32,000 nucleotides of DNA, from NCBI RefSeq assembly GCF_000146505.1, contig NC_017448.1:3600001-3632000 (forward strand), read 5' to 3'. The position numbers and the translations under genes are program-made. The notes under the pieces are model-generated. The model was not told the origin of the DNA and made no database searches. It saw only the letters and a program-made list of their open reading frames with translations. Positions 4,326 to 32,000 of this stretch are shown here, piece by piece. Numbering within the stretch: position 1 is the first letter of the stretch; every line of letters begins with the position of its first letter. This DNA comes from Fibrobacter succinogenes subsp. succinogenes S85. Its GTDB lineage: Bacteria > Fibrobacterota > Fibrobacteria > Fibrobacterales > Fibrobacteraceae.

Positions 4326-4382
4326 GATTGCTCCAATGATAAAAGTTCGGTGCATAATATACGAAATTTTTAGATTGTAGGC

Positions 4383-5546: not shown

Positions 5547-5567
5547 TTTTTTTCTACATTCGTCAAT

Positions 5568-5831
5568 ATGGATATTAATGAATGGCGCATTCGCATTGAC
5601 GAACTTAATGATGAACTGATGTCGCTTCTCAACAAGAGGGCTACATACGCTGCTGAAATTGGGAAAATCAAGAAACAGAAAGGTTTGCCCGTTTTTGATG
5701 AAGGTCGCGAACAGTCTGTCTTGAATTTGGTTGCTGAAAAGGCCGCAAAGGCCGGTGGCCCGCTTTCTCCGGAATCGTTCCAGAATATTTTCCGTGTCAT
5801 CATGGAAGAAACTCGCAAGGTGGAAGAATAA
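5568..5831 (+). CDS. Chorismate mutase (AroQ class)
   Basis: 87 aa. WRIRIDELNDELMSLLNKRATYAAEIGKIK...REQSVL...IFRVIMEETRK is the typical AroQ three-helix pattern. TAATG overlap with the next gene. Confidence 0.85.
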   Translation: MDINEWRIRIDELNDELMSLLNKRATYAAEIGKIKKQKGLPVFDEGREQSVLNLVAEKAAKAGGPLSPESFQNIFRVIMEETRKVEE

Positions 5832-11072: not shown

Positions 11073-11131
11073 ATATCCTCCCAAGAGAGAATATAGGAAT
11101 AAAATAAAGACTAAGTTTAATTGATGGGTGC

Positions 11132-16478: not shown

Positions 16479-17429
16479 TTATTTAAACCGTTTGCAAAAA
16501 CTGCAGGTTTGGCAAAAAGGGTGGCGTAGTTCATGCTGCGCGAACCCTTCTTTTATATTTAGCGCCATTGGGCTGTTGATGATTTCGGCAAGGCTTTGTT
16601 CGCCGATGTGACCGAGCGTAATTTGTCCGCTGTGATCGAGGCAACAGGCGACAACGCGACCGTCATGGAGAATCGCTACGTGCGTGTCTAGCGCGCGGCA
16701 TGTACCTGCGACGATTTCCTTGCCTATCCTCTCGTCTTTGACGCCTTCGGCGTCAGACAGTAAGGCTCGGTCATGCCAACAAGTAAACTTGTTGTCGCGA
16801 CTCTCGCCTCTTTCGTCTATACTAGGCCATTCAAATCTTGTGTCTTCGTGCAGATAAAGTCGACCGGTTATGTTGAAACTCTTGTGGCGACTGCAGAAAT
16901 GCCCGGGCGTGATATCAACGCCAAATGTCTCGTGGATGCGCATAAGCATGTAGCTGTTCCACGAGGAGGCTTCTTTGGCGCCGACGTTCCACAATCGTAA
17001 ATTGATGTAGAGATCGGGGCGTTCAACAATCGCAAGACTGCAAAAATCAAGGACGTTTTGCAAATGTCGTTCAGCGGTTTCGCGGGGGAGTTCCGCGTAG
17101 GCATGCGTCGAAAAGTTGACTTGGCGAACGGAGGGCGAGGCTAGAATTTGGTGACCTGTGCGCTCAATTGTGGTGCCATTTGTTGTGAGCGTGAGTTTTA
17201 ATGGTGTTAGTTCTAACTTCTTGACGTAATGCGCAAAGCCGGGATGGAGCGTGGGTTCGCCGAGAACATGAAAGTACACATTTGTTGCGTCGATTTCTTG
17301 AGCGCCTGCGATGCAATCTTCGAACAGCTTGGAATCCATGAACGTGCGGCTCGCGGGCTCCTTGCCACAGGGGCAAAAGCTACAATGCAAATTGCAAACG
17401 TTCGTGATTTCGATGTAGACGCTGTTCAC
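16479..17429 (-). CDS. Radical SAM protein with C-terminal SPASM/twitch-like Cys cluster
   Basis: 316 aa with a GTG start. YIEITNVCNLHCSFCPC (CxxxCxxC). C-terminal Cys cluster GTCRAL...VACCLDHSG...HPFCQTCSFC. GTGA overlap with dus. Confidence 0.8.
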   Translation of the reverse strand: MNSVYIEITNVCNLHCSFCPCGKEPASRTFMDSKLFEDCIAGAQEIDATNVYFHVLGEPTLHPGFAHYVKKLELTPLKLTLTTNGTTIERTGHQILASPSVRQVNFSTHAYAELPRETAERHLQNVLDFCSLAIVERPDLYINLRLWNVGAKEASSWNSYMLMRIHETFGVDITPGHFCSRHKSFNITGRLYLHEDTRFEWPSIDERGESRDNKFTCWHDRALLSDAEGVKDERIGKEIVAGTCRALDTHVAILHDGRVVACCLDHSGQITLGHIGEQSLAEIINSPMALNIKEGFAQHELRHPFCQTCSFCKRFK

Positions 17430-18418
17430 GAGAGCTCCCTCATTGCCATAATTGCTTCTTGGTATTCGCTGAGTTTGCCTGCTTTCTTGATTTTTTTGAA
17501 AATCTTTTTGGGAATGCTTGGCTCAAGGTATTCCCAGAAACTTTGTACGTGCGAGAGAATTTGGCTGTCGCCTTGGTACGTTTTGCAAGCGTGGTCAAAT
17601 ATGATCTGGTGCATTTGGAAAAGCTTGCGGAGAAAATCCTGCGGGTCGGCGCAGTTTATATCGCGCAATTCCTTGTAATCCGCGGCCATACTTGGTCTCG
17701 CAAGCATTCCTCGTCCAATCATCACGCCGGCAAGCTTCGGGTAGCGTCGTTCCATTTCACAGATTTGCGAAACGCTTGTGATGTCGCCGTTATAAACGAG
17801 CGGATGGCGGCATTCCTCATAAAACTTTTCAAATGATTTGAAATCGATTGTGCCTTTGTACTGCTGTTTGCCGAGTCTTGGGTGAAGTGTGATTTGCGAG
17901 AGCGGCGCTTCGTTTAGAATCGGGAGGATGGCAAAGGCTTCGTCGGGGGTGTCTTGCCCAAGCCGCATCTTGACGGAAAATTTTACCGGCGCAGTTCCGT
18001 TTGCGTTAGATATTTTCCTGATCTCGTCCATTATTTCTTGGACGGTTTGCTTGTCGTTTAAGATTCCTGCTCCACGATGACGGTTGACTTGCATCGGGAA
18101 GGGGCATCCCATGTTGAAGTCGATTTCCGTGTAGCCTTTAGCGATTAGCGCGTCTGCGAGGATTTTAAATTCATCGACGCTGTTCGCGATAATTTGCGGA
18201 ATCTCGCGCGCATTCCCATTCACGAATCCCGCGCAGTTCCCTTCGCGCGCATTCTTATCAAACGAATTTAAATCTCGCAAATCTTTTTCGCGCGGTTTCC
18301 CGTTTTCAATTCGCAAGAAAGGTGCGTAATAAGCATCAACACCGCCAAAGATTTCAGCGTGGGCTTTTCGATAAATGCCCGTCGTGTAACCTTGTAGCGG
18401 TGCAAATAGAATTCTCAA
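17426..18418 (-). CDS. tRNA-dihydrouridine synthase family protein
   Basis: 330 aa. APLQGYT..., EIDFNMGCPFPMQVNRHRGAGIL (catalytic Cys region), ITLHPR. Confidence 0.8.
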   Translation of the reverse strand: MRILFAPLQGYTTGIYRKAHAEIFGGVDAYYAPFLRIENGKPREKDLRDLNSFDKNAREGNCAGFVNGNAREIPQIIANSVDEFKILADALIAKGYTEIDFNMGCPFPMQVNRHRGAGILNDKQTVQEIMDEIRKISNANGTAPVKFSVKMRLGQDTPDEAFAILPILNEAPLSQITLHPRLGKQQYKGTIDFKSFEKFYEECRHPLVYNGDITSVSQICEMERRYPKLAGVMIGRGMLARPSMAADYKELRDINCADPQDFLRKLFQMHQIIFDHACKTYQGDSQILSHVQSFWEYLEPSIPKKIFKKIKKAGKLSEYQEAIMAMRELS

Positions 18419-18420
18419 AT

Positions 18421-19047
18421 TTATTTCCCGAGCGCTTTTTTCAAAGCCCTAATGGCGTTTCCGCGATGGCTGATGACCTTCTTTTCTTCAAGCTCCATTT
18501 GCGCGAACGTTCTCGTTTCACCATCCGGAACAAAAAGCGGATCGTAGCCAAAGCCCATGTCGCCAACAGGAGCGTGGTTGATTTCGCCGCGGCATTCGCC
18601 TTCAAAAATAATTGGCTTGCTGATGACAAATTCACCTTGTTCGTTCTTGGTCACGGTCTGGTACGAAAGAGCGCAGAAGTAACGAGCCTTGCGGTCTTCA
18701 ACGCCTTCGAGCTTTTGCATCAACTTGACATTGTTGGCTTCGTCATCGCCGTGCTTGCCGCAATAGCGGGCGCTGTAAATGCCCGGTTCGCCGTTCAAAG
18801 CGAAAACTTCAAGACCGGAGTCGTCGGCGAGAACGGTCGCTTCGATGTTTCGCTTGGCGAGCCATTGAGCCGTTGTATTCGACTTGATGATGGCGTTTTC
18901 GGCAAAGGAATTTCCGTCTTCAACGATGTCTTCGTCAAAACCGATGTCTTTCAAAGTCTTGAATTCGTAATGGTCTGTGCCCAAAATATGGGCGAAGTCT
19001 CTAATTTTTCCGGCACTACCGGTTGCAATAACAAAAAGGTGTTTCAT
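18421..19047 (-). CDS. rdgB: dITP/XTP pyrophosphatase (non-canonical purine NTP pyrophosphatase)
   Basis: 208 aa. ATGSAGKIRDF, EDGNSFAENA, DDSGLEV..LNGEPGIYSARY, FGYDPLF, SHRGNAIRAL. Confidence 0.88.
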   Translation of the reverse strand: MKHLFVIATGSAGKIRDFAHILGTDHYEFKTLKDIGFDEDIVEDGNSFAENAIIKSNTTAQWLAKRNIEATVLADDSGLEVFALNGEPGIYSARYCGKHGDDEANNVKLMQKLEGVEDRKARYFCALSYQTVTKNEQGEFVISKPIIFEGECRGEINHAPVGDMGFGYDPLFVPDGETRTFAQMELEEKKVISHRGNAIRALKKALGK

Positions 19048-19051
19048 AGAA

Positions 19052-19243
19052 TTAATAATGTTCCGGTTTCATGACGATCAAGATGGCGTCAACGACAACG
19101 CCTACGCCAAAGAGACCTGCGGTGCAAAGCCACAGAATGCCTGTCCAGATTTTTCCTTCGTAAAAACGGTGCAGACCCAGGTATCCGAGAAGAATGCAGA
19201 GGGCGAGAGCAATCCACTTGTTGTGTTCACCAGTAGCGGGCAT
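19052..19243 (-). CDS. TM2 domain-containing small membrane protein
   Basis: 63 aa from ATG 19243: MPATGEHNKWIALALCILLGYLGLHRFYEGKIWTGILWLCTAGLFGVGVVVDAILIV. The GxxGxHRFY motif is typical of the TM2 family. The track start 19294 adds 17 unlikely residues. Confidence 0.7.
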   Translation of the reverse strand: MPATGEHNKWIALALCILLGYLGLHRFYEGKIWTGILWLCTAGLFGVGVVVDAILIVMKPEHY

Positions 19244-19325: not shown

Positions 19326-21284
19326 GTGAAAATGAAAAAATTATCTCTTTCCTTATTGAGTCTCGCAGGGCTTTCTGCGGGCATGTTCCTTGCGGCATCC
19401 TGTGCTGCTCCGTCTGTCAATCCTTCCGTGCAGGCTAATGATGCTGCTCCGACGATTCACGTCCCGGTTTATGCGGCTCCTGTGACCGTCTTCGAAATGC
19501 GCGTGCTCGACAGGGATAAGCAAGTCCGCGTCGTCGAAAAGCCAACGCTTGCCGCTCTTGATTTTGCGGCGTACTTTGCAAACCCGATCCGCATGGCGGG
19601 CATGGATGAAAAGCCTGAAAATTACACGGGCAAGATGGCAAATGCAAAGCTTGAGGAATTCCCGTTCCCGATGCTCGACTCGATTTCGGATTATGAGCCT
19701 GCCGCGGTTGCCGGTGTAGCCCCGATTGCGTGGGAACCGTTTGCGAAGATCCTTTACGCGCAGACTGGTGATGATGCTCTTGCAAAAGCCTTGAATGAAG
19801 TCGAGGCGGTCAAGTGGAATGAACCTGATGTGTTCCGCGCTTTCCAGACGGTAAGTCGTTTGTGGGGTGTGCCTGGAACGGGCGAAAATCAGGGAAAGAT
19901 TGAATGGTGGGCCGAAGTCATGCCTGCCGTTTGGACTGGCCGTACTCCGTTCTACGGTAAGCTCAAGGTCGTTTCGGGTGGTGAATCTGCGGAAGTCTTG
20001 AACTACTACATGACGGCCGAGATGAACAATGAAGAGGCAATGAATTGGGCCCGTACGCTTTCGTCTTATTGGTACCCGACTTTGAATACGGACTTGGAAC
20101 AACATACACCTGGCGCCATTTGGGAAAACTCAAGTGCGAACCGCCCGTTTGCGGTGATGCGCGGAAACCCGATGGGGAGCCCGATGTGGGTCGCATTTGA
20201 AGTTCCTGCTTTCCGCTTGACGGATGAACAGTTGCGTGCCGCTGCTGTTGCCGATTCTTTGGCGGCTGCGGGTGAAGTGGTGCCGGTGAACCGCACGCTC
20301 GATACGAGTTCTTATGCTCGCTTGGAAACGCTTGCCGCTATGGAAAATAGCTGCCCTGCAACGCCTGCGACAAAGAAGTTCCGCGAAGCATTGAAGAAAA
20401 AACTGGCGAAGCTCCCGAAGGAACAGAATGCCTGGGCTGATAACGGAATGCTCTGGTTCCGCCGCAATGCAAACTACCTCGTTGCAGACAAAATTAGCGG
20501 TCAGGATAGCCTCCACAATCCGCTCCCGAGAATGATTGAACTCAAGCAGTATCTGGATTCCATGAATGTACAGCTTCTCGTGGTCCCGGTTCCTGTGAAA
20601 GAAGAAATCTATGCAGACAAGCTTGTAAAGGGTACGCCTGCGGACTTGTGCGTAAACGTAAACGGTCGTGAATTTATCCGCGAAATGCTCGCTGCTGGGA
20701 TTGATGTGCTCGACCTTTACCCGTCTCTGATGGCGGCCCGCAGTGGCGATGACGCTCCGCATTACAGCTACCAGCGCTACGATACGCACTGGGCTTTGCC
20801 GGGCATGCTTGCCGCAATGGAACAGCTCGCTTCTCGCGTGACGCAGTACAGCTGGTATGCCGATGCCAATCCGCAGCCGGGTAGCCTCGTGATGAAGGAT
20901 ACGGTTGTGCTCCGCGAAGGGGACTTGGTCGCTCATTTGCCGGATAAGGAAAAATCCAAGTATGCCGCAGATACTCTTGCAGGCATGAAAATCTACAAGG
21001 GCGATAAATCTTACAAGGGTGGCAAAAATGCTCCGATCCTCTTGATGGGTGACTCGTTCACGGGCGTGTTTGAATCCGTGGACCAGAAGAGCGGTGGCCC
21101 GGGTTCCTTGCTTGCTTATGCGACGGGGCTCGACGTTCAGGTGCTTACGAGCTGGGGCGGAGGCCCTGGCGTTCGCGCTCGCCTCAAGAAGATGAAAAAG
21201 GACATGCTGAGCAAGCGTCTCGTGATTTACATGATGACCGCTCGCGACTACTGGCAAAGCCCGATGGAATGGGACGGAATTTAG
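19326..21284 (+). CDS. Lipoprotein with unknown N-terminal domain (~330 aa) and C-terminal AlgX/AlgJ-type SGNH-like O-acyltransferase domain
   Basis: 652 aa (GTG 19326 or ATG 19332). Lipobox LAASC. C-terminal half reads DNGMLWFRRN..., QLLVVPVPVKEEIYADKL, GIDVLDLYP, YQRYDTHWALPG (DxHW, nt 20781-20792), LLMGDSFTGVF (GDS, nt ~21048-21056). This order matches AlgJ/AlgX. Confidence 0.75.
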   Translation: MKMKKLSLSLLSLAGLSAGMFLAASCAAPSVNPSVQANDAAPTIHVPVYAAPVTVFEMRVLDRDKQVRVVEKPTLAALDFAAYFANPIRMAGMDEKPENYTGKMANAKLEEFPFPMLDSISDYEPAAVAGVAPIAWEPFAKILYAQTGDDALAKALNEVEAVKWNEPDVFRAFQTVSRLWGVPGTGENQGKIEWWAEVMPAVWTGRTPFYGKLKVVSGGESAEVLNYYMTAEMNNEEAMNWARTLSSYWYPTLNTDLEQHTPGAIWENSSANRPFAVMRGNPMGSPMWVAFEVPAFRLTDEQLRAAAVADSLAAAGEVVPVNRTLDTSSYARLETLAAMENSCPATPATKKFREALKKKLAKLPKEQNAWADNGMLWFRRNANYLVADKISGQDSLHNPLPRMIELKQYLDSMNVQLLVVPVPVKEEIYADKLVKGTPADLCVNVNGREFIREMLAAGIDVLDLYPSLMAARSGDDAPHYSYQRYDTHWALPGMLAAMEQLASRVTQYSWYADANPQPGSLVMKDTVVLREGDLVAHLPDKEKSKYAADTLAGMKIYKGDKSYKGGKNAPILLMGDSFTGVFESVDQKSGGPGSLLAYATGLDVQVLTSWGGGPGVRARLKKMKKDMLSKRLVIYMMTARDYWQSPMEWDGI

Positions 21285-21298
21285 ACGAAAGACTAAAG

Positions 21299-22048
21299 AT
21301 GAATCTCTCGTCTCTCGTCTCTCGTCTCTCCTCTAAACTATTTTGGTGGCTTTTCTTCGCGACGCTCGTGATTGCACTCCCGTTTTTGCTTTGGAACGGG
21401 AAAAGCGAGTCCATGAGCTATCGCGAAATGGCGTGCGTATTTGAAGAACGCGCGCCGGGCTGCCTTGATTCCATTAGTGACTGGCATGCGGGACTTGCTT
21501 ACTTTGATAGTAGTGTTGCGGCGACTCACGACACTTTGCAATCCCTGAAAAACCTGCTTTGGCAATTTTGGAATATCGAATTTGCCGGGGCGGGCGAGGC
21601 CGCTGTTGCTAAAGATGCTGTGCTTCCGCTTCGCGTTCTTGCAAACAAAAGATCGGGTTGCATGGGACTTTCGTGGCTTGCGCTCATGGTGGCGCAGTCG
21701 CGTGGTTTGCCTCTCGACGCTATTCTCCTTCCGGGGCATGTCTTTTTGCGTTACGGCTCCTCGGACAGTTTTGTGAATTTGGAACCGAACCGTCGCGGCT
21801 TTACCTATACCGATGAAGAATACCGTGAAAAGTACAAAAAAGGTCCTTGGACCGGCCTTGAATTTAAACCGCTTGAAACGCGACAGTTTATAGGGCTTGC
21901 CGCGTTTGATATCGGCAATTTGTACCTTGAAAACGACATTCCGCGTGCGCTCACGTGGTACCGCATGGCCGAAGAATTTTTCCCAGAATATCCGGGAATT
22001 GAGGCTAATCAATCCATTGCGAAAAATAGATTGCCAAATCCATTTTGA
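21299..22048 (+). CDS. Membrane-anchored transglutaminase-like (SirB1/Transglut_core2-like) protein with C-terminal TPR-like helix pair
   Basis: 249 aa from ATG 21299 (alternative ATG 21269 overlaps the upstream gene by 16 nt). TM helix LFWWLFFATLVIALPFLLW. Cys-His-acid pattern SGCMGLSWLALMVAQSRGLPLDAILLPGHVFLRY...VNLEPN. TPR-like IGNLYLENDIPRALTWYRMAEEFFPEYP. Confidence 0.65.
   Translation: MNLSSLVSRLSSKLFWWLFFATLVIALPFLLWNGKSESMSYREMACVFEERAPGCLDSISDWHAGLAYFDSSVAATHDTLQSLKNLLWQFWNIEFAGAGEAAVAKDAVLPLRVLANKRSGCMGLSWLALMVAQSRGLPLDAILLPGHVFLRYGSSDSFVNLEPNRRGFTYTDEEYREKYKKGPWTGLEFKPLETRQFIGLAAFDIGNLYLENDIPRALTWYRMAEEFFPEYPGIEANQSIAKNRLPNPF
21304..21333. repeat. Heptamer microsatellite (TCTCGTC)x3 plus one degenerate unit at codons 2-12 of the transglutaminase-like gene
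   Basis: tc tctcgtc tctcgtc tctcgtc tctcctc. Same TCGTCTC unit as the tract at 11487-11522. Confidence 0.8.
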
Positions 22049-22144: not shown

Positions 22145-24991
22145 ATGTCTAAGTCTTTTGCACATACCTTCTTCTTTGAAAAGGTACTTTTTTTAGTACC
22201 GTTTTTACTCGTTTTTTCTGGTTGTGATACTTTTTTTGGTGACCATGTGTGGCTTAATGCTCCCGTTGAAACGGACAACGCTCACGATGGCCTAATTCTC
22301 GTAAGAGCTTCGAAAGTCAAAAATTCAAGTGGTGGAACGCTTTCGTATTTGGGAACGTATGCGGCTAAGGCAAAGGCGAGTGAACGTCCGCAATTACGTG
22401 CCGCTTTGAACTATGATTTTTCCATGGGTATGCACGAGGTCACTTGTGCCGAGTTTAAGAGCATCATGGGGACGACTTTTGACGAACGGTGCAATGGCGA
22501 AGAGTCTGATCTTTTGCCGGTGACCAAGGTGACGTATTACGATGCCGTTCTTTATTCCAACGAGCGCAGTAAACGTGAAGGCTACGATACCGCCTATACT
22601 TACACATCCACGTCGGTTGATGTCACAGGTAGCTGTATTACGATGGAAGGGCTCGTGTTCCATCCGGAGGTCGATGCTTATCGCTTGCCGACCGAAGCGG
22701 AATGGATTATGGCGGCAGACCGTGACTGGAATCCGTCTGGCGAATGGAATGCGTTAAATTCAGATTTTGAACCGAAAAAAGTCTGTTCGTATGCCCGCCT
22801 CCGTGGTGATTTTTGCGACATGGGCGGTAACGTCAAGGAATGGGTTGCGGACTGGCTTGGCTATTTCAAGGATACGACCATTACTAATTACGTCGGTGGG
22901 CCTGACGGTGGCGTGCTTGGCGAGCGCGTCATCAAGGGCGGCAGTTATCGCAATGATCCTTCGGCGATTAAGCTTTACGGTCGAGGCGATGTCTACATTG
23001 TCACTTCGGCGACAAAGTCGGACTATCTCGGTTTCCGTCTGGCTTTTGGAAAAATCCCGAATGCAGTTTGGATGGGGCGTGATGGTCATGCCCGAGACAG
23101 TCGAATCATCCCGATGGCAAGTGCGACCGTTGTCAAAAACAACCTGGATACGTACCGCACCAAGCTCGTTTTCCGAAATGATGTCACGGGCAATTTGGCG
23201 TATGTTGATTACGTCAACGGGACGCTTTCTGTGACTGAAATTTCTGATTCCATTGATTCGTTCCACCCTGATATTTCTCCGGATGGCAGGCTTGTCGTGT
23301 ACTGCACGGGAATGGAAGGCGTTTCTGGAAAGTCCGAGGCGTATATCCGTGCGCTTTCTACGAGCAACGCAAAACCTTTGAAAGTCAAGGTCAATGGTAA
23401 CGTTTCGATCCCGCGTTGGCGAGTGCTTGAAAATGGCGATACGGCGATAGTCTATGTGTCCGATGCAGGGAACAACAAAAACGATGGCGAATTCAAGTCC
23501 AAGAGTACGTGGCTTGTCAAGTATGGCAATGGCCGTTTTGGAACGCCCCAAAAACTTTTTGACGGAGCGTACCATGGTGGAATTTCTAGTGATAACAGAC
23601 TGGCGGTGACGGGTGCGCGACTGTTGCGTGCGCGTGTGGCTCCTGCGGGTAAAACGCTCGCTGATGGGCGCGATACTGTTTGGTACAACGGAGAACAGGC
23701 TTGCAATGTGTCTCTTGCTAATGATGGTTCCAAGCGCGTGGCGTTCCTTGATTTTGGCGGTAAGACCGGTGCCGAATTTGTGGGTAAGAGTTACGGGACT
23801 CATGAACGTTTGCTGATTGCCGATAGTACAGGAAAACTCATCAAGGCGATTGCATCTCCGGAAGGCTTTAGCTTTGACCATGCGGAATGGGCTTTGAACT
23901 ATGCCGGCTCAGATTCTGATGGTGGCTTTATTGTGGCGACTCTTACGAATGCCAATGGTGCCCATACAAAAGTAGTCCTTGTGAATGTGGGGGATGGCTC
24001 TATTCTGGATTTGGTCGAGGGCGATGAACTTTGGCATCCGAGCATTTGGCGCCAAAAGATCAACGTGCCGGAAACGAGTAAACTGGATCCGGACAGTGCG
24101 GGCGTTTACCTGTACCCATCAGATAAGTGGGAATCCGTCATTATGCGCTATAAGATGAATCTCCTGTGGAAATACCGCGACTCGGCTAACGTCGCTATTT
24201 TGGGATCGTCGAGGCCGATGTTTGGTGTGACTCCGCTTAGTTTTGACAAGAAGTTCTTTGCCGTTAATTTTGGACAAACTCCAAACTCAATTTACATGTC
24301 CAGGGATTTCTTGAACAACTATATCTTTAGGCACATGAAAAATCTCAAGTATGTTGTCGTTTCTCTGGATATTGATTTCTGGCATAAGATTGATGGCCCG
24401 GGTGGGGACAACTTCTTCTATACGGATTTTGAAAATTATCCGGGATACGTTTATGACCGCAACCATGAATTCTGGGATGCGGGCTATCCGGATGGCTTGC
24501 TGGAATATACCGAGAGCTCCGTGGGTTCATCGGACGAAAGTTATTACATGAAGGATAGAGGCCGCTATGCGAATGCGAATTGCGGTTCCTGGCGTGAAGA
24601 ACCTGAAATTGAACAGGATAGCGTCTACCTCGATGATCATTGGAATTTGATTGACGATAGCAAGGCTGCCCTTATGACTATCATTAAAGAAGCGGCGAAG
24701 CGCGATATCCGCGTGGTGGGCCTCATTTTCCCGCAGAGCCCAGCGTATGCAAAAACCGGGGCGTTTGGCCGTTATGGACTCCGCCGCAGTTCTGCCAAAA
24801 AGTTGATTAGCGAGCTTGAATCCTTGCATAAGGAATACCCGAATTTTGTGTTGATGGATGAAAATAAAATGGGCGAGCATGACTATACAGACTTGATGGC
24901 TGTAGACGAAGACCACCTTTGCTATGGCGGAAGTTATATACTCACGTCTCGCTTGAACCGATTGTTATTATCCTGGGAGGCTGAAAAATGA
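22145..24991 (+). CDS. Paralog 1: large lipoprotein with FGE-sulfatase-like domain, TolB/PD40-like beta-propeller and DltD/SGNH-like C-terminal domain
   Basis: 948 aa. AAGGAG RBS. Lipobox VFSGC. FGE-like HEVTCAEF...VTYYDAVLYSNERSK...YRLPTEAEW...GNVKEWVADW...RVIKGGSY...YLGFRLA. Propeller FHPDISPDGRLVVYCT...SLANDGSKRVAFLDFGGKTG. C-terminal ILGSSRPMFG ... AVDEDHLCYGG. Confidence 0.8.
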   Translation: MSKSFAHTFFFEKVLFLVPFLLVFSGCDTFFGDHVWLNAPVETDNAHDGLILVRASKVKNSSGGTLSYLGTYAAKAKASERPQLRAALNYDFSMGMHEVTCAEFKSIMGTTFDERCNGEESDLLPVTKVTYYDAVLYSNERSKREGYDTAYTYTSTSVDVTGSCITMEGLVFHPEVDAYRLPTEAEWIMAADRDWNPSGEWNALNSDFEPKKVCSYARLRGDFCDMGGNVKEWVADWLGYFKDTTITNYVGGPDGGVLGERVIKGGSYRNDPSAIKLYGRGDVYIVTSATKSDYLGFRLAFGKIPNAVWMGRDGHARDSRIIPMASATVVKNNLDTYRTKLVFRNDVTGNLAYVDYVNGTLSVTEISDSIDSFHPDISPDGRLVVYCTGMEGVSGKSEAYIRALSTSNAKPLKVKVNGNVSIPRWRVLENGDTAIVYVSDAGNNKNDGEFKSKSTWLVKYGNGRFGTPQKLFDGAYHGGISSDNRLAVTGARLLRARVAPAGKTLADGRDTVWYNGEQACNVSLANDGSKRVAFLDFGGKTGAEFVGKSYGTHERLLIADSTGKLIKAIASPEGFSFDHAEWALNYAGSDSDGGFIVATLTNANGAHTKVVLVNVGDGSILDLVEGDELWHPSIWRQKINVPETSKLDPDSAGVYLYPSDKWESVIMRYKMNLLWKYRDSANVAILGSSRPMFGVTPLSFDKKFFAVNFGQTPNSIYMSRDFLNNYIFRHMKNLKYVVVSLDIDFWHKIDGPGGDNFFYTDFENYPGYVYDRNHEFWDAGYPDGLLEYTESSVGSSDESYYMKDRGRYANANCGSWREEPEIEQDSVYLDDHWNLIDDSKAALMTIIKEAAKRDIRVVGLIFPQSPAYAKTGAFGRYGLRRSSAKKLISELESLHKEYPNFVLMDENKMGEHDYTDLMAVDEDHLCYGGSYILTSRLNRLLLSWEAEK

Positions 24992-27738
24992 AAGGCGGAA
25001 TACAGATAAATGTGAAATGCTTTGCATTTTTGGCGCTGGTTCTTTTTTTGTGGAGTTCCTGTAGCGATAGTAGCGATTCTCCATCTTCTGGGGAACCGTC
25101 AAATTACGTGACGAGTGTTGACGGTTTTGTTTATGTCAATTCCAAAGGTAATTCAACGTTCTTGGGGACGGATGTTAGCGGAGCCCGTAAGAGTGATTCT
25201 CCAAAGATGGAAGTGCATTTCACATACGATTTTTATATCGCCGAACATGAAGTGACTTGCGGCGAGTTCCATGCACTGCTTAAATCGTCGGGCGAAAAGT
25301 GCGAAGGCATGTATCGCGATAAGAGCCCCATCACAAACGTGACGTTCTTTGATGCTGTACTCTTTGCCAATGCCAAAAGTAAAAAGGAAAATCTAGATAC
25401 CGTCTATACGTACACGAGCGCTTCTTTTGATGCTTCGGGGAGTTGCGATAACTTGGTTGGACTTTCGTTCCACGAAAATGTAAAGGGCTATCGCTTGCCG
25501 ACGGAGGCCGAATGGGTTTATGTGGCTAGCCAGGGCTGGGACCCTGAAAAGGGCTGGAACAGCGTCAATTCGGAATACAAGTTCCACGATGTTGCAACGT
25601 CTCCTGCGAACGAACTTGGAGTTTACGATATGGCGGGAAATGTTCTGGAATGGGTGAATGACTGGCTCACTTATTTTACGAAAGAGCCGGTGACGAATTT
25701 TGCAGGCGGTGCTGATGAAGGTAGCCTTGGTGAACGTGTTGTCAAGGGCGGTAGCTATAGAAACGAGTCTTCTGCAACGACTTTGTACAGCCGCGGTGAC
25801 GTCTATACGGTGATTTCTTCGACAAAGGGCGATTATCTTGGATTCAGGCTTGCGCTTGGAACGATTCCCGATGCTACATGGCTTGATGAAAGCGGTACGG
25901 TGAAGGAATCTATTGTGAAGTCGGATGTGTCCGTTTTTGAAATGAAGCACTTGACGGGAACTTTTGAATCCAAGCTGGTGTTCCGCAATGATATTACGAG
26001 TAACTTGTCCTTTATTGATTTTGGAAGCGGAGTTGTTTCGGTCATTGAAATTGAGGATACGCAGAAGGCTTACCACCCGGATATCTCGCCCGATGGAAAG
26101 CGCGTGGCTTATTGCACTGGCTTTGAAGGGACGAATGGCAAGTCGAGTATCTACGTGCGCAACTTGAATGCAAAGGGGACGGACCTTGTCAAGCTTGAAG
26201 TTGAAAATGCGGCTATCCCTCGCTGGAAAATTCAGGAAAATGGCGATACGGCAATTGTCTATGTGACGAGTGCCGCAAATAACAAGGATGACGCAGCTTT
26301 TGCGGAAATGAGCACGTGGCAGGTCCCGTTTAACAATGGTAAGTTTGGAAAACCAAAAAAGCTCTTTGACGGTGCGTACCATGGTGGCGTGAGTGGAACC
26401 AAGCAGCTCGCTGTATCGGGGGCTAGGCTGTTGCGTGCTCGCGTGGCTCCGTACGGAAAGACTGTCGCAAACGGAAACGATACGGTGTGGTACAACGGGG
26501 AACAGGCTTGCAATGTCTCGCTTGCTAATGACGGAAGCGATAGGACGGTGTTCCTTGATTTTGGCGGCAAGACGGGTGCGGAATTTGTCGGATCTTCATA
26601 CCGTACGCATGAACGCCTCCTGGTGGCTGATGCCAAGGGAAAACTTATCCAAAGTGTTGCAGCCCCGAGCGGCTATACGTTTGACCATACGGAATGGGTA
26701 CTGGGCGGTTCAAATTATGTTATTGCAACTCTCGCCAATGCTAGCGGCGCTCACCAGAAAATTGCGTTAATTAACTTGTCCGATAGTACGGTGCAAGTCT
26801 TGGTTGAAGGCGATGAACTTTGGCACCCGTGCCTGTGGCATTCGAAAAACAACTATAGCAGCAAGGATTTGAATACGGATAGTGCGGGCGTCTATTATTC
26901 GTCAAGCGCTTATTACAGCGCATTGGAACTCCGTGTCAAGATGCAGAAGTTCTGGGAAAATCGCGACAGCATTACGGCTTTGGCGCTCGGCTCCTCGCGT
27001 ACGATGTTTGCCTTGCACGATAAGAGTATCAAGTCGCACAACTTGCTCAACATGGCGTATTCCGCCGGACAGCTGACGGGTATGTCTTACCTGTTCATCA
27101 ACTATGCGCTGACCCATCTCAAGAATCTAAAGGTCCTGGTCCTTGAAATGTCTCCGGACTTTTTATGGTACGACGGGTTTACGACGTGGATTAACGTGAT
27201 ATACAACAAGGTGCCTGGCTTCAAGTACGATGAAAACCACAACTTCTGGGCCGATGGTTTGCCGGAACATTTTGTCGACGCAGTGAAGGTGACTCCCCGC
27301 CCAGAAACGGCTTTACAGCACCCGTACGACCTGGAAGACTTCCTTTTACCGGATAATTCCTGGGGTTTTCCGGTATTTTTGAAGGATTCTGCAGATTGTA
27401 ATATGGATTCCCCTGTATTTAAGGAAAATTTTGTTTATTTTAAGTATGTAGTGGACGTGGCCCGCCAGAAGGGGATTAAAGTTGTTGTGACTGTATTCCC
27501 GCAACATCCGGGCTACGCTTCGACAGGCTCGTTTGGTGTGTATGGTCCGAGGCGGAGTTCTGCGAAGGAAATTATTGATTCGGTGAAGACGATGGATGTT
27601 ATTCTGTTTGATGAAAATAAGTTTGGTGCTCACGACTATACGGACAAGATGGCGTATAACGTCGACCACTTGAGCACTTCGGGAGCAGAACAGTTTACGC
27701 ATCGGTTGGATTCGCTGCTTTCAAAATTGAGCCAGTAA
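24988..27738 (+). CDS. Paralog 2 of the same three-domain lipoprotein family
   Basis: 916 aa. ATGA overlap with paralog 1. Lipobox LWSSC. Same motif series (HEVTCGEF, YRLPTEAEW, RVVKGGSY, YLGFRLA, YHPDISPDGKRVAYCT, FLDFGGKTG, GDELWHP, LGSSRTMF, YNVDHLSTSG). Confidence 0.8.
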   Translation: MKGGIQINVKCFAFLALVLFLWSSCSDSSDSPSSGEPSNYVTSVDGFVYVNSKGNSTFLGTDVSGARKSDSPKMEVHFTYDFYIAEHEVTCGEFHALLKSSGEKCEGMYRDKSPITNVTFFDAVLFANAKSKKENLDTVYTYTSASFDASGSCDNLVGLSFHENVKGYRLPTEAEWVYVASQGWDPEKGWNSVNSEYKFHDVATSPANELGVYDMAGNVLEWVNDWLTYFTKEPVTNFAGGADEGSLGERVVKGGSYRNESSATTLYSRGDVYTVISSTKGDYLGFRLALGTIPDATWLDESGTVKESIVKSDVSVFEMKHLTGTFESKLVFRNDITSNLSFIDFGSGVVSVIEIEDTQKAYHPDISPDGKRVAYCTGFEGTNGKSSIYVRNLNAKGTDLVKLEVENAAIPRWKIQENGDTAIVYVTSAANNKDDAAFAEMSTWQVPFNNGKFGKPKKLFDGAYHGGVSGTKQLAVSGARLLRARVAPYGKTVANGNDTVWYNGEQACNVSLANDGSDRTVFLDFGGKTGAEFVGSSYRTHERLLVADAKGKLIQSVAAPSGYTFDHTEWVLGGSNYVIATLANASGAHQKIALINLSDSTVQVLVEGDELWHPCLWHSKNNYSSKDLNTDSAGVYYSSSAYYSALELRVKMQKFWENRDSITALALGSSRTMFALHDKSIKSHNLLNMAYSAGQLTGMSYLFINYALTHLKNLKVLVLEMSPDFLWYDGFTTWINVIYNKVPGFKYDENHNFWADGLPEHFVDAVKVTPRPETALQHPYDLEDFLLPDNSWGFPVFLKDSADCNMDSPVFKENFVYFKYVVDVARQKGIKVVVTVFPQHPGYASTGSFGVYGPRRSSAKEIIDSVKTMDVILFDENKFGAHDYTDKMAYNVDHLSTSGAEQFTHRLDSLLSKLSQ

Positions 27739-27775
27739 AAAGTCGATAAACATGTATGAAAGAAGGGGAGAAATT

Positions 27776-30535
27776 ATGAGATATCTTATAGCGATTCTGC
27801 TTGTGTCTTTGTACGCTTGCACCGATTCCAATAGTACCTATGGATTTGAAAGTGATGTTGTAAAAACAGTAGAAGACTCCCTTTCGGGAATGTTGCGCGT
27901 GTCTGGTAACGTCACGGCGCACTTGGGTACGAACGACATTACGGCAAAGGCGACCGAACGTCCGCAAATGGATGTCCTGCTGACTTATGATTTCTCAATC
28001 GGCAAAAGCGAAGTGACTTGCGGTGACTTCAACGCCTTGATGAAACCTGCGACCGGACTCAAGGTGAAGTGCATTACGAACATGTACCCTGCAACGGATG
28101 TTACTTATTACGATGCTGCGCTTTACGCGAACGAACGCAGCAAGTCTGAAGGCATGGATACCGCTTACACGTATGTCGGGACTCAATTTGATCACGAAAA
28201 GCACTGCACGAATCTAGACGGTTTTGCTTTCCACCCCGAGGTGAAAGCTTACCGATTGCCGACAGAAGCGGAATGGTCGCTCGTGGCTCAATCCTATAAG
28301 AAGCACGCGGGTGGCTGGACTTCTGAAAATTCGGATTACACGCTCCATGAAGTCTGTAACAAGTACGACAGCCAAACGAATGTCTGCGACATGATCGGTA
28401 ATGCGATGGAATGGGTGAACGACTGGTATGGCGAGTTCCTGGATACGACTTTGACAAACTATGTGGGCTCTCCTGATGCGGGCATGTTCGGCATGCGCGT
28501 GGTCAAGGGAGGTAGCTATAAGAATGCGGCAAGCTCCATCCATATCTATAACCGTGGAGATGTGTACCCGGTCACCTGTTCTAGCCATGTGGATTACGTG
28601 GGTTTCCGTTTGGCGTATGGCTCTATCCCTGATGCGGTTTGGCTGGGTTCTAATGGTCATCCAGCGACGAGTCGCGTGGTTTCGCTCATAAATTCAACGG
28701 CCATCCGTTCTCAGACGGGTACATATAAAGTCAAACTGGCTTTCCGTGACGACCTTACGGGAAACCTGGCGTATATTGATTACTCAAGTGGCGCTTCTGT
28801 TGTGAACGAAATTGTGGATAACATCCCCGTGTACCATCCTGAAATTTCGCCTGATGGCAAAAAAGTTGCTTTCTGTACGAATATTGAAGGCCTTTCTGGA
28901 AAGTCCGAAATCTATGTCCGCGACTTGAATACTTCGGGAACGAACCTCGTGAAGCTTGATGTTGAAAGTGCTGCGATTCCGCGTTGGCGCGTGCTTGAAA
29001 ACGGTGATACGGTCATTACTTATGTGACGGATGTCAGCAACAACAAGGACGATGCAACCTTTAAGGCCGCTTCGACATGGCAGGTAAAGTTTGCCGATGG
29101 AAAATTTGGCAAGCCCGAAAAGCTTTTTGATGGCGCTTATCATGGCGGTGTCAGCGAAGACGATCGCCTTGCCGTGACGGGCGCTAGACTCTTGCGTGCT
29201 CGTGTTGCAAAGGCGGGCTCGACTGTCATGAGTGATGCTGTCGATACAATTTGGTACAAGGACGGTGACGAGGCTGAACAGGCTTGCAATGCATCGCTTG
29301 CCAAGGATAGCAGCAAGCGTACCTTGTTCCTTGATTTTGGCGGCAAGACGGGGCAGGCTTTTGCCGAAACGAAATATGCAGTGCATGAACGTTTGCTTAT
29401 CGTTGATTCAACGGGTGCGCTTGTTCAGTCTATAGGCGCTCCGAGTGGCTTTACGTTTGACCATAGCGAATGGGCTTCTGGTGTCCGTAACATTGCCGTT
29501 GCGACTTTGACAAACGTCAATGGTGCGCATACAAAGATTGCGTTGATTAACTTGTCAAAGAATGAAATTATTGAACTTGCCGAAGGCGATGAACTTTGGC
29601 ACCCGTGCCTGTGGGTGAAAAAGGATTTTGACCTGAATGATGATTTGCAACTCAATCTCGATAGTGCTGGCGTGTACTATAGGGAGGGGCAGGACTGGGC
29701 GCACATTTCAATGGGCTACAAGATGTCGCTTTTGTGGCGCTACAGAAACGATGTTGAAATTCTGTGCGTCGGTAGCTCGAGAACGGAAAACAGCGTGGTG
29801 GTCACGTCGATTACGGCAGGATTTGCACTGAACACGGGCCATTCGGGTAACGACATGAACGCTTCGCTTTACGTGGCCGAAAACTATGGCCTCAATCACT
29901 TGAACAAGCTGAAGAGTATCGTTGTGTCCCTGGATTTGGACCTTTGGCACAACTCTACGGAATATACGGAAATTTTGATTGCGACGACACCGGGTTTTGT
30001 GTACGATGCTAGCCACGGATTCTGGACTTCCGGCTTGCCGGACGGTTTCTTGGATGCGGTTGCACTTTCTTCGCAGTATTCCGATGTGGCGAGGACGATT
30101 TACGAACCCTCGCGTGGATTCTTCAGCGCCGATGGCTCGGGCTGGGGAACCGCTTCCGTGGAACTGGACTCTAACTGGCATGGTGATGCCGGCATGCAGA
30201 AGATTGAATGGAATATCAAGCGCCTGAAGGACTTTATCGTCAAAACGGAACCTTTGGGTGTAAATATTGTCGGTGTGATATTCCCGCAGAATCCGGGATA
30301 TCGCAATACCGGTTCCTGGGGCCGTTATGGTCCGAGACGCTCTGTTGCCAAGGACATTATGGATTCCCTGAATAAGTTCCAGAAGCAGTATCCGCATTTC
30401 CATGTGCTTGACGAAAACAAGAACGGTGAGCACGATTATGCGGACGATTGCGCTGTGAATACGGACCATCTAAGCTTGATAGGGGCAGCCAAGGTGACGG
30501 GGCGTATAGATTCCCTGCTGAAAACGTTGAAGTAA
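27776..30535 (+). CDS. Paralog 3 of the same three-domain lipoprotein family
   Basis: 919 aa from ATG 27776 (AAGGGGAG RBS; the track start 27752 adds 8 aa). MRYLIAILLVSLYAC lipobox. Same motif series (SEVTCGDF, YRLPTEAEW, RVVKGGSY, YVGFRLA, YHPEISPDGKKVAFCT, FLDFGGKTG, GDELWHP, VGSSRTEN, VNTDHLSLIG). Confidence 0.8.
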   Translation: MRYLIAILLVSLYACTDSNSTYGFESDVVKTVEDSLSGMLRVSGNVTAHLGTNDITAKATERPQMDVLLTYDFSIGKSEVTCGDFNALMKPATGLKVKCITNMYPATDVTYYDAALYANERSKSEGMDTAYTYVGTQFDHEKHCTNLDGFAFHPEVKAYRLPTEAEWSLVAQSYKKHAGGWTSENSDYTLHEVCNKYDSQTNVCDMIGNAMEWVNDWYGEFLDTTLTNYVGSPDAGMFGMRVVKGGSYKNAASSIHIYNRGDVYPVTCSSHVDYVGFRLAYGSIPDAVWLGSNGHPATSRVVSLINSTAIRSQTGTYKVKLAFRDDLTGNLAYIDYSSGASVVNEIVDNIPVYHPEISPDGKKVAFCTNIEGLSGKSEIYVRDLNTSGTNLVKLDVESAAIPRWRVLENGDTVITYVTDVSNNKDDATFKAASTWQVKFADGKFGKPEKLFDGAYHGGVSEDDRLAVTGARLLRARVAKAGSTVMSDAVDTIWYKDGDEAEQACNASLAKDSSKRTLFLDFGGKTGQAFAETKYAVHERLLIVDSTGALVQSIGAPSGFTFDHSEWASGVRNIAVATLTNVNGAHTKIALINLSKNEIIELAEGDELWHPCLWVKKDFDLNDDLQLNLDSAGVYYREGQDWAHISMGYKMSLLWRYRNDVEILCVGSSRTENSVVVTSITAGFALNTGHSGNDMNASLYVAENYGLNHLNKLKSIVVSLDLDLWHNSTEYTEILIATTPGFVYDASHGFWTSGLPDGFLDAVALSSQYSDVARTIYEPSRGFFSADGSGWGTASVELDSNWHGDAGMQKIEWNIKRLKDFIVKTEPLGVNIVGVIFPQNPGYRNTGSWGRYGPRRSVAKDIMDSLNKFQKQYPHFHVLDENKNGEHDYADDCAVNTDHLSLIGAAKVTGRIDSLLKTLK

Positions 30536-30598
30536 TAATGTATTTGACGTTATTCTGGGTGAAGGAAAGTTTGTATATTAGTTCCAAGGAATCATAAT

Positions 30599-32000
30599 AT
30601 GAAAATTTTTGGAATGAAAGATACTCTTATCTTAAGCGTTGCCGCTTTATCTATAATTTTCCTGGAATCCTGCTCGGATGATTCTCCGACTCAGACAGAA
30701 ATGGGGTCGTCCCTTGTTTGTTCCTTAAGGGACAATTGCCCCGGTGCTGATCTAAAAGATGACTTTGCGCTTGTCCGGTCTTCTGGAAAAACTATAGTAG
30801 TAGGCACGAATAACAAAACGGCTAAAGTCAATGAACGCCCTGAAATGGACGTCAAGTTTGATTACGATTATCAGCTCGGTTTGCATGAAGTCACCTGTGG
30901 CGAATTCAAGGACTTGATGAACGGAAAGAACGGACTTTCGCTTGAGTGCTCTCAGAGTGTGGTTCCTGTGGTGAATGTCACCTATTACGATGCGGTCCTT
31001 TTTGCCAATGCCAAAAGCGTCAAGTTCAAGTTAGATACCGCTTATAGCTATTCCTCGGCTGAATTTGACAAGAATGGCCATTGTGTGCTTCTGGAAGGGT
31101 TCAAGTTCAATCCGAATGTTGATGCTTACCGCTTGCCAACCGAAGCGGAATGGATTTTTGCGGCAAGCCTTTCGGCCAATGTTGAAAAGAGCTGGAATGC
31201 CGACAATTCTGATTTCAAGGCTCACGAAGTTTGCAAGAAAAAAGACGAAAACGGCTTTTGCGATCTATATGGCAACGTGACGGAATGGGTCAATGACTGG
31301 CTCGGGAATTTCCGCGATACGACGATAACGAACTTTGTGGGCGCTACAAATGGCGGTAGCCTTGGCGAACGAGTGATCAAGGGCGGTAGCTTTAGGAGCG
31401 AACCTTCGGCGATTAACGTGTATGCCCGTGGAGATGTCTACACCGTTACGGGTACGAGTTCTTCGGAATATCTCGGGTTCCGACTTGCGTATGGAAAGAT
31501 TAGCAACCCGGTTTGGCTTGATGCTTCGGGCGAGGTCGTGGCTTCGAATATGTCTATTGTCACATCTTCGAAAAAGATTTCGTCCATTTTTGGAGTTTCG
31601 CGTTCTAGGCTTGCGTTCCGCAATGACGTGACCGGAAACTTGGCCTATGTCGATTTTGCAAAGATTTCACCGACCATTGTTGAAATCAAGGATTCTCTGG
31701 GCGTTTATCACCCCGATATTTCTCCGGACGGCAAGCGTGTGACGTTCTGCACGGGGCAGGAGGGAATTAGTGGAAATTCTGCAGTCTACGTGCGCAATCT
31801 GGATGCGGAAGGGACTGGCCTTGTAAAGCTTGACGTGAAGTCGGCTGCGATTCCGCGCTGGCGCGTGCTTGAAAACGGCGATACGGTGATTGTGTACGTG
31901 ACGGATGCCGGCAATAACAAGGACGAATCTGTGTTCAAGGCAGCATCTACATGGCAGGTGAAATTTGCAAATGGCAAGTTCGGCGAACCTTCTAAGCTTT
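30599..32000 (+). CDS. Paralog 4 of the same family, N-terminal ~467 codons only (runs off the right edge)
   Basis: Not in the ORF track because it has no stop. My translation from ATG 30599: MKIFGMKDTLILSVAALSIIFLESCSDDS...HEVTCGEFKDLM...VNVTYYDAVLFANAKS...AYRLPTEAEWIFAA...GNVTEWVNDW...RVIKGGSFRSEPSAINVYARGDVYTVTGTSSSEYLGFRLAYG...YHPDISPDGKRVTFCT...IPRWRVLENGDTVIVYVTDAGNNKDE. Open to the window end. Confidence 0.8.
   Translation, partial: MKIFGMKDTLILSVAALSIIFLESCSDDSPTQTEMGSSLVCSLRDNCPGADLKDDFALVRSSGKTIVVGTNNKTAKVNERPEMDVKFDYDYQLGLHEVTCGEFKDLMNGKNGLSLECSQSVVPVVNVTYYDAVLFANAKSVKFKLDTAYSYSSAEFDKNGHCVLLEGFKFNPNVDAYRLPTEAEWIFAASLSANVEKSWNADNSDFKAHEVCKKKDENGFCDLYGNVTEWVNDWLGNFRDTTITNFVGATNGGSLGERVIKGGSFRSEPSAINVYARGDVYTVTGTSSSEYLGFRLAYGKISNPVWLDASGEVVASNMSIVTSSKKISSIFGVSRSRLAFRNDVTGNLAYVDFAKISPTIVEIKDSLGVYHPDISPDGKRVTFCTGQEGISGNSAVYVRNLDAEGTGLVKLDVKSAAIPRWRVLENGDTVIVYVTDAGNNKDESVFKAASTWQVKFANGKFGEPSKL

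Follow-up and report, generated by a model that had tools for sequence, protein, structure and literature searches.

Here we report that four consecutive genes at the right end of a 32,000-nucleotide stretch of Fibrobacter succinogenes subsp. succinogenes S85 DNA (contig NC_017448.1, positions 3,600,001 to 3,632,000; the whole stretch is referred to as the window) encode lipoproteins of the TIGR02171 family, in which an N-terminal domain with the fold of the formylglycine-generating enzyme (FGE), a beta-propeller and a C-terminal SGNH-hydrolase-like domain are joined in one chain. The array, Fisuc_2574 to Fisuc_2577, is the expanded core of a conserved cassette of four gene families that has so far not been described, and the C-terminal domain carries a probable active SGNH centre with conserved Ser and His residues, judging from sequence conservation and a structural model. 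We see about an even chance that the proteins are lipid-anchored serine esterases or acyltransferases of an envelope-polymer tailoring system, which would O-acylate the cell's own surface glycan, de-acylate it, or both.

Four tandem genes encode collinear TIGR02171 lipoproteins

The genes lie on the plus strand at 22145-24991 (paralog 1, Fisuc_2574/FSU_3144, 948 aa), 24988-27738 (paralog 2, Fisuc_2575/FSU_3145, 916 aa), 27776-30535 (paralog 3, Fisuc_2576, 919 aa) and from 30599 to the window end at 32000 (paralog 4, Fisuc_2577, first 467 of 979 codons). An initial annotation, made from the letters of the window, had described them as consecutive same-strand genes for collinear paralogous proteins, and this was borne out by the open reading frames (ORFs) and by a collinear alignment over about 900 residues at 44-48% identity. 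The frame of paralog 4 stays open over all its codons in the window, as had been stated, and on the genome it runs on to a stop, giving a 979-aa protein at L001 12824-15763 (L001 is the source-genome locus, whose position 1 is window position 17776). Regarding paralog 3, an upstream in-frame ATG at 27752 would yield 927 aa instead of the 919 aa obtained from 27776; the 919-aa version is the product recorded for CP001792.1. The array had been thought to hold at least four genes; it holds exactly four, the next gene encoding an unrelated membrane protein, and at least one further family member, FSU_1244, is found elsewhere in the S85 genome. The operon-like spacing was as originally described, with an ATGA overlap of paralogs 1 and 2 at 24988-24991 followed by gaps of 37 nt and 63 nt between the later genes.

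All four proteins were scored against the 912-position model of TIGR02171 ('Fb_sc_TIGR02171', TIGR02171 family lipoprotein; NCBIfam/TIGRFAMs), whose curated cut-off is 544.35 bits. Paralogs 1 to 3 reached 1175.6, 1520.6 and 1529.9 bits with end-to-end coverage of the model (positions 1-912 for paralog 3), and paralog 4 reached 638.6 bits as the window fragment and 1132.3 bits at full length. Since the four proteins score 1132-1530 bits against a cut-off of 544, the family that the initial annotation had tentatively named was the right one. GenBank and RefSeq also name these proteins TIGR02171 lipoproteins ('putative lipoprotein, TIGR02171' for paralog 1). The HPDISPDG, SLANDGS and FLDFGG motifs are present in the translations, and so are all four lipobox strings quoted earlier (VFSGC, LWSSC, SLYAC and FLESC for paralogs 1 to 4, all among the N-terminal 27 residues). 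Of 197 full-length family members, 165 (84%) have a hydrophobic leader that ends in [GAS]-C, and lipid anchoring via the N-terminal Cys in an envelope membrane is predicted from these leaders.

Identity among the paralogs differed by domain, being 47-50% for the N-terminal, 57-61% for the middle and 33-40% for the C-terminal domain; the propeller is thus the most conserved part and the SGNH domain the most divergent one. At the DNA level the array appeared as repeats with a period of 2761-2877 nt and 60-85% identity, without near-identical tracts, indicating an old tandem duplication without recent gene conversion.

A word-indexed search gave 2,327 sequence clusters at E<=1e-5, and the named ones among the matches listed were Fibrobacter. 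A profile of the C-terminal domain matched 1,939 cluster representatives (213 at E<=1e-30), and nearly all of the best 150 had a length of about 900 aa and this domain architecture, or were fragments of such proteins. A scan for relatives with FGE-domain patterns yielded two full-length members among what were for the most part unrelated proteins with an FGE domain. Full-length members with about 27-29% identity, bearing an extra InlB-B-repeat, occur in a metagenome-assembled genome (MAG) of Chitinispirillaceae and in one further assembly. The family had been called Fibrobacter-specific, but the full-length Chitinispirillaceae protein (about 29% identity) shows that it extends beyond this genus. 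In the same MAG (L004), an 801-aa protein with a C-terminal canonical GDSL_2 domain is encoded at 4515-6920, directly after the distant TIGR02171-like gene; it is a second, different SGNH protein adjoining a member of the family.

The C-terminal domain has an SGNH fold with invariant Ser and His

In paralog 2 the C-terminal domain spans residues ~640-916 (26905-27735). When modelled alone (predicted local distance difference test score, pLDDT, 86.9; predicted template modelling score, pTM, 0.88), it formed a three-layer alpha/beta/alpha fold with a parallel sheet, and almost all of its top Foldseek matches were SGNH/GDSL proteins, plus a few designed scaffolds (probability 1.00, TM-score on the target 0.60-0.66). 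The best were the Bacteroides acylhydrolases 4iyj and 4ppy (E 7e-5 to 2e-4, TM-score on the target 0.63-0.64), and others included GDSL lipases, rhamnogalacturonan acetylesterase, PatB and sialate O-acetylesterases.

The putative catalytic residues occupy the places expected of a canonical S...H order. G668-S669-S670 (block I) comes directly after the strand 664-667, with Ser670 at the beta1/alpha1 junction, and N891-x-D893-H894 (block V) places His894 just ahead of the last helix. Conservation was counted over 81 TIGR02171 representatives clustered at 50% identity: G668, S670 and H894 were invariant (81/81), D875 was 99% conserved and D893, next to His894, 68%. N688, after strand 2, was 95% conserved, and the motif following strand 3 reads 'SPD'. 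Between beta3 and beta4 lies a variable insert, and the SGNH domain of paralog 4 has a Cys-rich insertion of ~45 aa. With the canonical SGNH superfamily (Pfam clan CL0264) the domain shares its fold and the Gly-x-Ser where the first strand meets its helix; ahead of the last helix it has (D/N)-x-x-His, with Asp or Asn at the place of the canonical Asp.

Profile comparisons placed it near the same superfamily. In a member-by-member Pfam scan of 17 C-terminal domains, DUF1574 matched 6 (best E 5e-7), GDSL_2 matched 2, and DltD (E 1.3e-3) and AT3-SGNH matched one each; SGNH-clan families were the only Pfam families matched by more than one of the 17. The bit scores available for these matches were all under the gathering thresholds, the two homologs scanned whole against DUF1574 (PF07611) covering the first third of the model with about 25 bits against a threshold of 29.1, and the S85 paralog 2 domain itself had no DUF1574 match. 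DUF1574, for which no activity or structure is known (PMC9487903), is the nearest family and not a demonstrated home of the domain. A profile of the domain gave chance matches only against PDB sequences. Compared with DUF1574 and DltD (PF04914), the TIGR02171 domain differs in being fused to an FGE-like domain and a propeller, and in that its block V Asp is often Asn.

The cassette contains an AlgX-like gene, described below, and members of the AlgX family are circularly permuted (PMC9487903). Homology of the TIGR02171 domain to this AlgX-like domain was rejected, as hhalign gave a probability of 0.07% and the order of motifs differs. The canonical order and the lack of profile similarity to the AlgX-like gene thus support the description 'SGNH, DltD/DUF1574-like' and not 'AlgX-like'. 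The C-terminal domain had initially been called SGNH/DltD-type: the SGNH part was upheld by the fold, the invariant Ser and His and the weak DUF1574, DltD and GDSL matches, whereas DltD stayed below threshold and an AlgX type did not hold. A stand-alone version also exists, since P0132 (339 aa) is a TIGR02171 C-terminal SGNH-like domain behind a lipoprotein signal peptide ending in 'LFAC', indicating that the catalytic module can stand alone.

The N-terminal domain is an FGE fold without the catalytic cysteines

FGE-sulfatase (PF03781) matched all four paralogs (E about 1e-24 to 5e-30; 4.5e-24 for paralog 1 and 5.5e-30 for paralog 2), and in paralog 2 this C-type-lectin-fold domain covers residues 56-289 (25153-25854). 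With the full-length AlphaFold2 model of paralog 2 (pLDDT 89.3, pTM 0.80), the best Foldseek match was TvpA (2y3c, E 4.9e-15), the variable protein of a diversity-generating retroelement (DGR), and further matches of the N-terminal domain were human and bacterial FGEs (about 1e-11 to 1e-9), PvdO, CarF and PorK.

In human FGE the catalytic cysteine pair is Cys336/Cys341. When paralog 2 was aligned to Streptomyces coelicolor FGE, 'GGSYLCHDSYCNRY' paired with 'GGSYRNESSATTLY' at the catalytic segment, where the 'LCHDSYC' of the enzyme was aligned to the cysteine-free 'RNESSAT', and the pair was also absent from the consensus of the 81 members. An FGE-like domain without this pair would be a binding scaffold and not a sulfatase-maturing enzyme, and the domain is best regarded, on its sequence, as a ligand-binding C-type-lectin-fold scaffold like other non-catalytic FGE-fold proteins. 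The label FGE-sulfatase/SUMF1-type given initially is therefore correct for the fold (PF03781, Foldseek) but not for the chemistry, and a functional FGE was excluded.

The closest sequence and structure matches, namely TvpA, CarF (5aoh), PvdO (5hha) and PorK/GldK/GldJ, likewise lack the FGE cysteine pair. By score, the TIGR02171 proteins are not PorK/GldK/GldJ equivalogs, as the GldK/PorK and GldJ models gave 13-41 bits against cut-offs of 350 and 458, confined to the shared FGE-fold segment, so that membership in GldK/PorK/GldJ was ruled out; EgtB, OvoA and PvdO equivalog scores were also far under their cut-offs. The match to TvpA, along with DGR papers mentioning Fibrobacter, raised the question of a DGR target, which was rejected on finding no near-identical template/variable repeats. 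Unlike in TvpA, there is no DGR at the array, and the domain is N-terminal and conserved rather than hypervariable. [quoted passage not shown]

The middle domain is a propeller

Residues ~325-620 of paralog 2 (25960-26847) formed about 21 consecutive beta-strands in the AlphaFold2 model, arranged as an all-beta propeller of about six PD40/TolB-like blades, and matched the YWTD propellers of LRP6, CAO1, and prolyl and acylaminoacyl peptidases in Foldseek. A propeller is thus supported at the level of the modelled fold. As to the narrower label of TolB/PD40-like propeller used in the initial annotation, the profiles were sub-threshold (PD40, best 20.1 bits against 20.9; TolB equivalog, 11-19 bits against a cut-off of 343); 'PD40/TolB-like' is plausible as a description, and membership in TolB was ruled out. 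Prolyl oligopeptidase and acylaminoacyl peptidase also pack a beta-propeller on a Ser/His hydrolase domain in one chain, and Foldseek aligned paralog 2 to them over 690-790 columns with a poor global superposition (root-mean-square deviation, rmsd, 22-24 Å). Because the hydrolase domain is SGNH and not of the alpha/beta-hydrolase fold, this is an analogy of design only.

A full-text literature search returned no study of TIGR02171 or of these locus tags, and no report of an FGE-sulfatase and SGNH combination. The initial statement that no characterised protein was known with this domain combination therefore agrees with the literature, and the C-terminal domain had no sequence-detectable relative in PDB.

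The array is the variable middle of a conserved cassette

Five independent loci showed one gene order: an AlgX-like lipoprotein, a transglutaminase-like protein, 1-4 TIGR02171 genes and an orphan protein with ~10 transmembrane (TM) segments, which follows the last TIGR02171 gene in all cassette loci. The number of TIGR02171 copies was four in S85, three in L083 and L084, two in L085/L086 and in L090 (Fibrobacter sp. UWT3), and one in L091. Two unrelated flanking contexts were seen, Dus/Ham1...GH8 and peptidase U32...DnaA, the latter in L085, L090 and L091 (GH8, glycoside hydrolase family 8). Recurrence of the same order in different neighbourhoods is good evidence for a functional cassette with a copy-variable middle.

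The first gene in S85 (Fisuc_2572/FSU_3142, 19332-21284, plus strand) encodes a 650-aa lipoprotein with a true AlgX-family domain (ALGX PF16822, E 8.9e-19, residues 392-614), in which 'RYDTHW' is followed by 'GDSF' and the permuted DxH...GDS catalytic order is thus retained. Its N-terminal ~360 residues (about 30-390) matched no family. In IMG, homologs carry the label 'alginate O-acetyltransferase complex protein AlgJ', although neither AlgI nor any alginate gene lies nearby. The second gene (Fisuc_2573/FSU_3143, 21269-22048, plus strand, 259 aa) overlaps the first by 16 nt and encodes a Transglut_core2/SirB1-type protein (PF13369, E 2.1e-10) with one N-terminal TM helix at 24-42, presumably a membrane anchor that leaves the protein on the periplasmic side.

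The last gene, Fisuc_2578 (L001 15781-17565, 594 aa), starts after a 17-nt gap behind paralog 4 and has about 10 predicted TM segments, a near-invariant 'FPLTDTDIWWHLA' ('TDTD' motif) after TM1, a membrane core rich in invariant positions, numerous charged residues that do not vary, and a soluble C-terminus of ~130 aa that is conserved. All of its 510 homologs are unannotated and every named one is Fibrobacter; no Pfam, NCBIfam or PDB match was obtained, even with a 33-sequence profile or member-by-member scans. The topology, together with the TDTD motif, is reminiscent of GT-C glycosyltransferases. In S85 the gene contains a 21-nt tandem repeat (3.2 copies, L001 16943-17009) encoding 'KNTSLKL' repeats inside a Lys/Ser-rich loop insertion of ~70 aa, which is absent from 485-aa orthologs.

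AlgX-type transferases normally need an acyl donor of the membrane-bound O-acyltransferase (MBOAT) family. The initial annotation had proposed looking for an MBOAT or a glycosyltransferase to the right of the array; neither was found in the window, the cassette or the rightward region, nor was a sulfatase in the window or the cassette, and the orphan ~10-TM protein stands there instead. The cassette resembles the AlgX/AlgJ-AlgI and PatA/PatB systems in combining extracytoplasmic SGNH-type proteins with a polytopic membrane protein. It differs from them in that the membrane partner is no MBOAT and falls into no known family, that no polysaccharide synthase or export gene is included and that a transglutaminase-like protein is added; from AlgX it also differs in that the TIGR02171 domain is not AlgX-like. 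As compared with the Dlt system, no DltB (MBOAT) or DltC carrier partner occurs in the window or the cassette.

A GH8 endoglucanase gene with a sorting domain of the type IX secretion system (T9SS) follows the cassette in S85 (FSU_3149, L001 17654-19099) and is conserved there only in the succinogenes-type context; a TIGR02171 gene also adjoins a GH8 gene in L087 and L088. To the left, a divergent minus-strand block comprises radical SAM/SPASM (16479-17429), Dus (17426-18418), Ham1/RdgB (18421-19047) and a 63-aa TM2-domain protein (19052-19243). This Dus/Ham1 housekeeping block is conserved to the left of the succinogenes-type cassette, and it flanks the cassette-less L088 locus in the same way.

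Envelope expression and transcription

In the initial annotation, silence of the genes had been named as an outcome that would speak against the operon reading. In an envelope proteome prepared by biotin-neutravidin affinity purification (Raut et al. 2019, PMC6851124), the supplement lists 4 peptides for paralog 2 (FSU_3145), 7 for the AlgX-like protein (FSU_3142) and 8 for the fifth TIGR02171 lipoprotein (FSU_1244), and GH8 (FSU_3149) as detected. Fisuc_2572 was also among the envelope proteins exclusive to, or more abundant on, cellulose in an earlier study (Raut et al. 2015, PMC4619616). These detections show that the genes are not silent.

Transcription as a single operon would be consistent with the short gaps and overlaps and with the position of convincing hairpins, which were found only after GH8 (two strong terminator-like hairpins at L001 19140-19206).

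Envelope-polymer tailoring and alternative roles

If the proteins are tailoring enzymes, the lipidated N-terminal Cys would anchor each of them to an envelope membrane, and the SGNH serine would form an acyl-enzyme, which would then either hydrolyse an ester off a carbohydrate-type polymer outside the cytoplasm or transfer the acyl group onto the polymer. The FGE-like domain and the propeller may serve to bind either the polymer or a partner, differences in specificity among the paralogs may stem from the divergent SGNH domains and their variable inserts, and the cassette as a whole would tailor an envelope polymer. We infer that an envelope system for glycan acyl modification, as the initial annotation had suggested, remains the best reading, and the conserved cassette partners have added support to it. 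A more specific version, which we consider less likely than not, is a previously unrecognised, Fibrobacter-specific acyl-relay or glycan-tailoring machine, in which the ~10-TM protein would replace the MBOAT as donor or translocase, or act in a GT-C-like manner, and would feed three extracytoplasmic kinds of acyl-enzyme (a Ser enzyme of the AlgX type, a Cys enzyme with the transglutaminase fold and the 1-4 SGNH lipoproteins with three domains), decorating the surface polymer by which the cells adhere to cellulose.

Several observations weigh against tailoring of the cell's own glycan by these proteins. The similarity to SGNH folds is a moderate one, with a best E of 7e-5, a TM-score of about 0.64 on the target and an rmsd of 8-9 Å, blocks II Gly and III Asn had no confident assignment, and the position three residues before the block V His is Asp in 53/81 and Asn in 28/81 members, including paralogs 2 and 3. 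No relative with a known function could be detected for the membrane protein, and neither the window nor the cassette contains an MBOAT acyl donor. Loci lacking the cassette partners also carry TIGR02171 genes, as a singleton in L003 and as clusters in L087 and L088, so that the proteins need not depend on those partners. Promoter and terminator scans were at chance level overall, and the sigma-70 consensus may not be that of Fibrobacter. No biochemical, genetic or transcript evidence was found for any TIGR02171 member, and the neighbouring GH8 and pectate-lyase T9SS genes fit a plant polymer as the substrate equally well.

This last point leads to the main rival, which we consider unlikely but the most serious of the alternatives, namely that the proteins are surface carbohydrate esterases acting on plant cell walls. 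Lipoproteins flipped to the surface would strip acetyl or other esters from xylan, mannan and pectin and open cellulose to T9SS-secreted glycanases, the four paralogs covering different acylated polymers. The closest solved folds are in keeping with this, as they include rhamnogalacturonan acetylesterase, gut Bacteroides GDSL acylhydrolases and sialate O-acetylesterases. Surface lipoproteins of the FCB group carry a polar/acidic-rich stretch after the lipobox Cys, with which the polar/acidic-rich S-N/D-S of TIGR02171 proteins compares. A pectate lyase gene (PF00544; 13243-14934, plus strand, 563 aa) with a carbohydrate-binding module (CBM6/CBM35) and a weak T9SS C-terminal sorting domain lies 7 kb upstream of the array, a typical secreted carbohydrate-active enzyme (CAZyme) of Fibrobacter, and GH8 both follows the S85 cassette and adjoins TIGR02171 genes in L087 and L088. 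On the other hand, the cassettes of L085, L090 and L091 have no adjacent CAZyme, yet the AlgX-like, transglutaminase-like and membrane genes stay, which makes the position next to GH8 look like a matter of lineage-specific synteny. Nor would an esterase that is purely degradative be expected to have a polytopic partner in the inner membrane and a transferase of the AlgX type. The proteomes point both ways: the AlgX-like neighbour was found only or mainly in cellulose-grown envelopes (PMC4619616), whereas paralog 2 showed no marked change among the values given in the 2019 supplement (about -0.07 to -0.16; PMC6851124).

Remodelling of the cell wall or of lipids, and a purely structural role, are both less likely than plant-polymer esterases. 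According to the former, which we consider improbable, the SGNH domain would act on O-acetyl groups of peptidoglycan (Ape/PatB-like), on envelope lipids or on lipoproteins, with the propeller docking peptidoglycan-associated partners. PatB, the peptidoglycan O-acetyltransferase B, is indeed among the Foldseek matches, and one domain weakly matched DltD, the teichoic-acid D-alanyl transferase, but neither similarity is stronger than that to generic GDSL esterases, and an MBOAT of the PatA/DltB type is lacking from both window and cassette. The weak TolB and PD40 similarity of the propeller would fit this reading, but TolB scores at 11-19 bits against 343. A distant member in L089 is found near SLT/LysM and monofunctional transglycosylase genes, which are however on the opposite strand.

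To the latter, that these are non-catalytic structural or adhesive envelope lipoproteins like PorK/GldK/GldJ or TolB, with the SGNH domain as a mere binding module, we likewise give little credence. The FGE-like domain weakly matches the GldK/PorK and GldJ models and the PorK structure, Fibrobacter uses T9SS according to the 2019 study (PMC6851124), and the best structural match is the ligand-binding TvpA. However, GldK and GldJ give 13-41 bits against cut-offs of 350-458, there are no DGR template/variable repeats, and the block I Gly and Ser and the block V His are absolutely conserved in the 81 representatives down to 27% identity, which argues for retained catalysis.

Finally, that the proteins are genuine formylglycine-generating enzymes maturing sulfatases, as some sources annotate homologs (IMG labels one cluster 'formylglycine-generating enzyme required for sulfatase activity', in line with the PF03781 matches at E 1e-24 to 5e-30), is hardly credible for lipoproteins located outside the cytoplasm with two extra domains, R-N-E-S-S-A in place of the catalytic Cys pair, EgtB, OvoA and PvdO scores far under the cut-offs and no sulfatase gene in the window or the cassette.

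Other features of the window and its right flank

Two large ORFs had no Pfam or NCBIfam match, at 9354-11192 on the minus strand (612 aa) and at L001 19502-21859 on the plus strand (785 aa), and the 785-aa product was absent from the protein collection by exact look-up. A 635-aa ORF at 3309-5216 (minus strand) has an epimerase/dehydratase domain only at residues ~298-621, and its N-terminal extension overlaps an MscS-type channel gene at 4383-5546 (plus strand); the true epimerase gene probably starts ~300 codons further in.

Significance

The existence of these genes is not new, as they belong to a named family. What is new is the assignment of the domains, with an SGNH centre that is probably active and an FGE fold that has lost its catalytic residues, the three-domain combination, for which no described precedent was found, and the cassette of four families, in which an orphan membrane protein stands instead of an MBOAT. 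The system is a variation within the SGNH enzyme world and not categorically new. F. succinogenes, a rumen bacterium, ranks with the most active degraders of cellulose known.

The TIGR02171 family comprises about 2,300 sequence clusters, is multi-copy per genome and envelope-expressed, and has so far been unstudied; the SGNH centre, the dead FGE fold and the cassette partners turn an array of 'hypothetical lipoproteins' into a testable enzyme system. Should the membrane protein turn out to be a new donor enzyme for acyl or glycosyl groups, the interest would be greater. If the substrate is plant acetyl esters, the family would represent a new esterase family unclassified in CAZy and useful for biomass deconstruction, and such activity would open a first way into the function of the DUF1574-like branch within the SGNH superfamily. 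If, on the other hand, the substrate is the cell's own surface glycan, the cassette would bear on the adhesion of Fibrobacter to cellulose.

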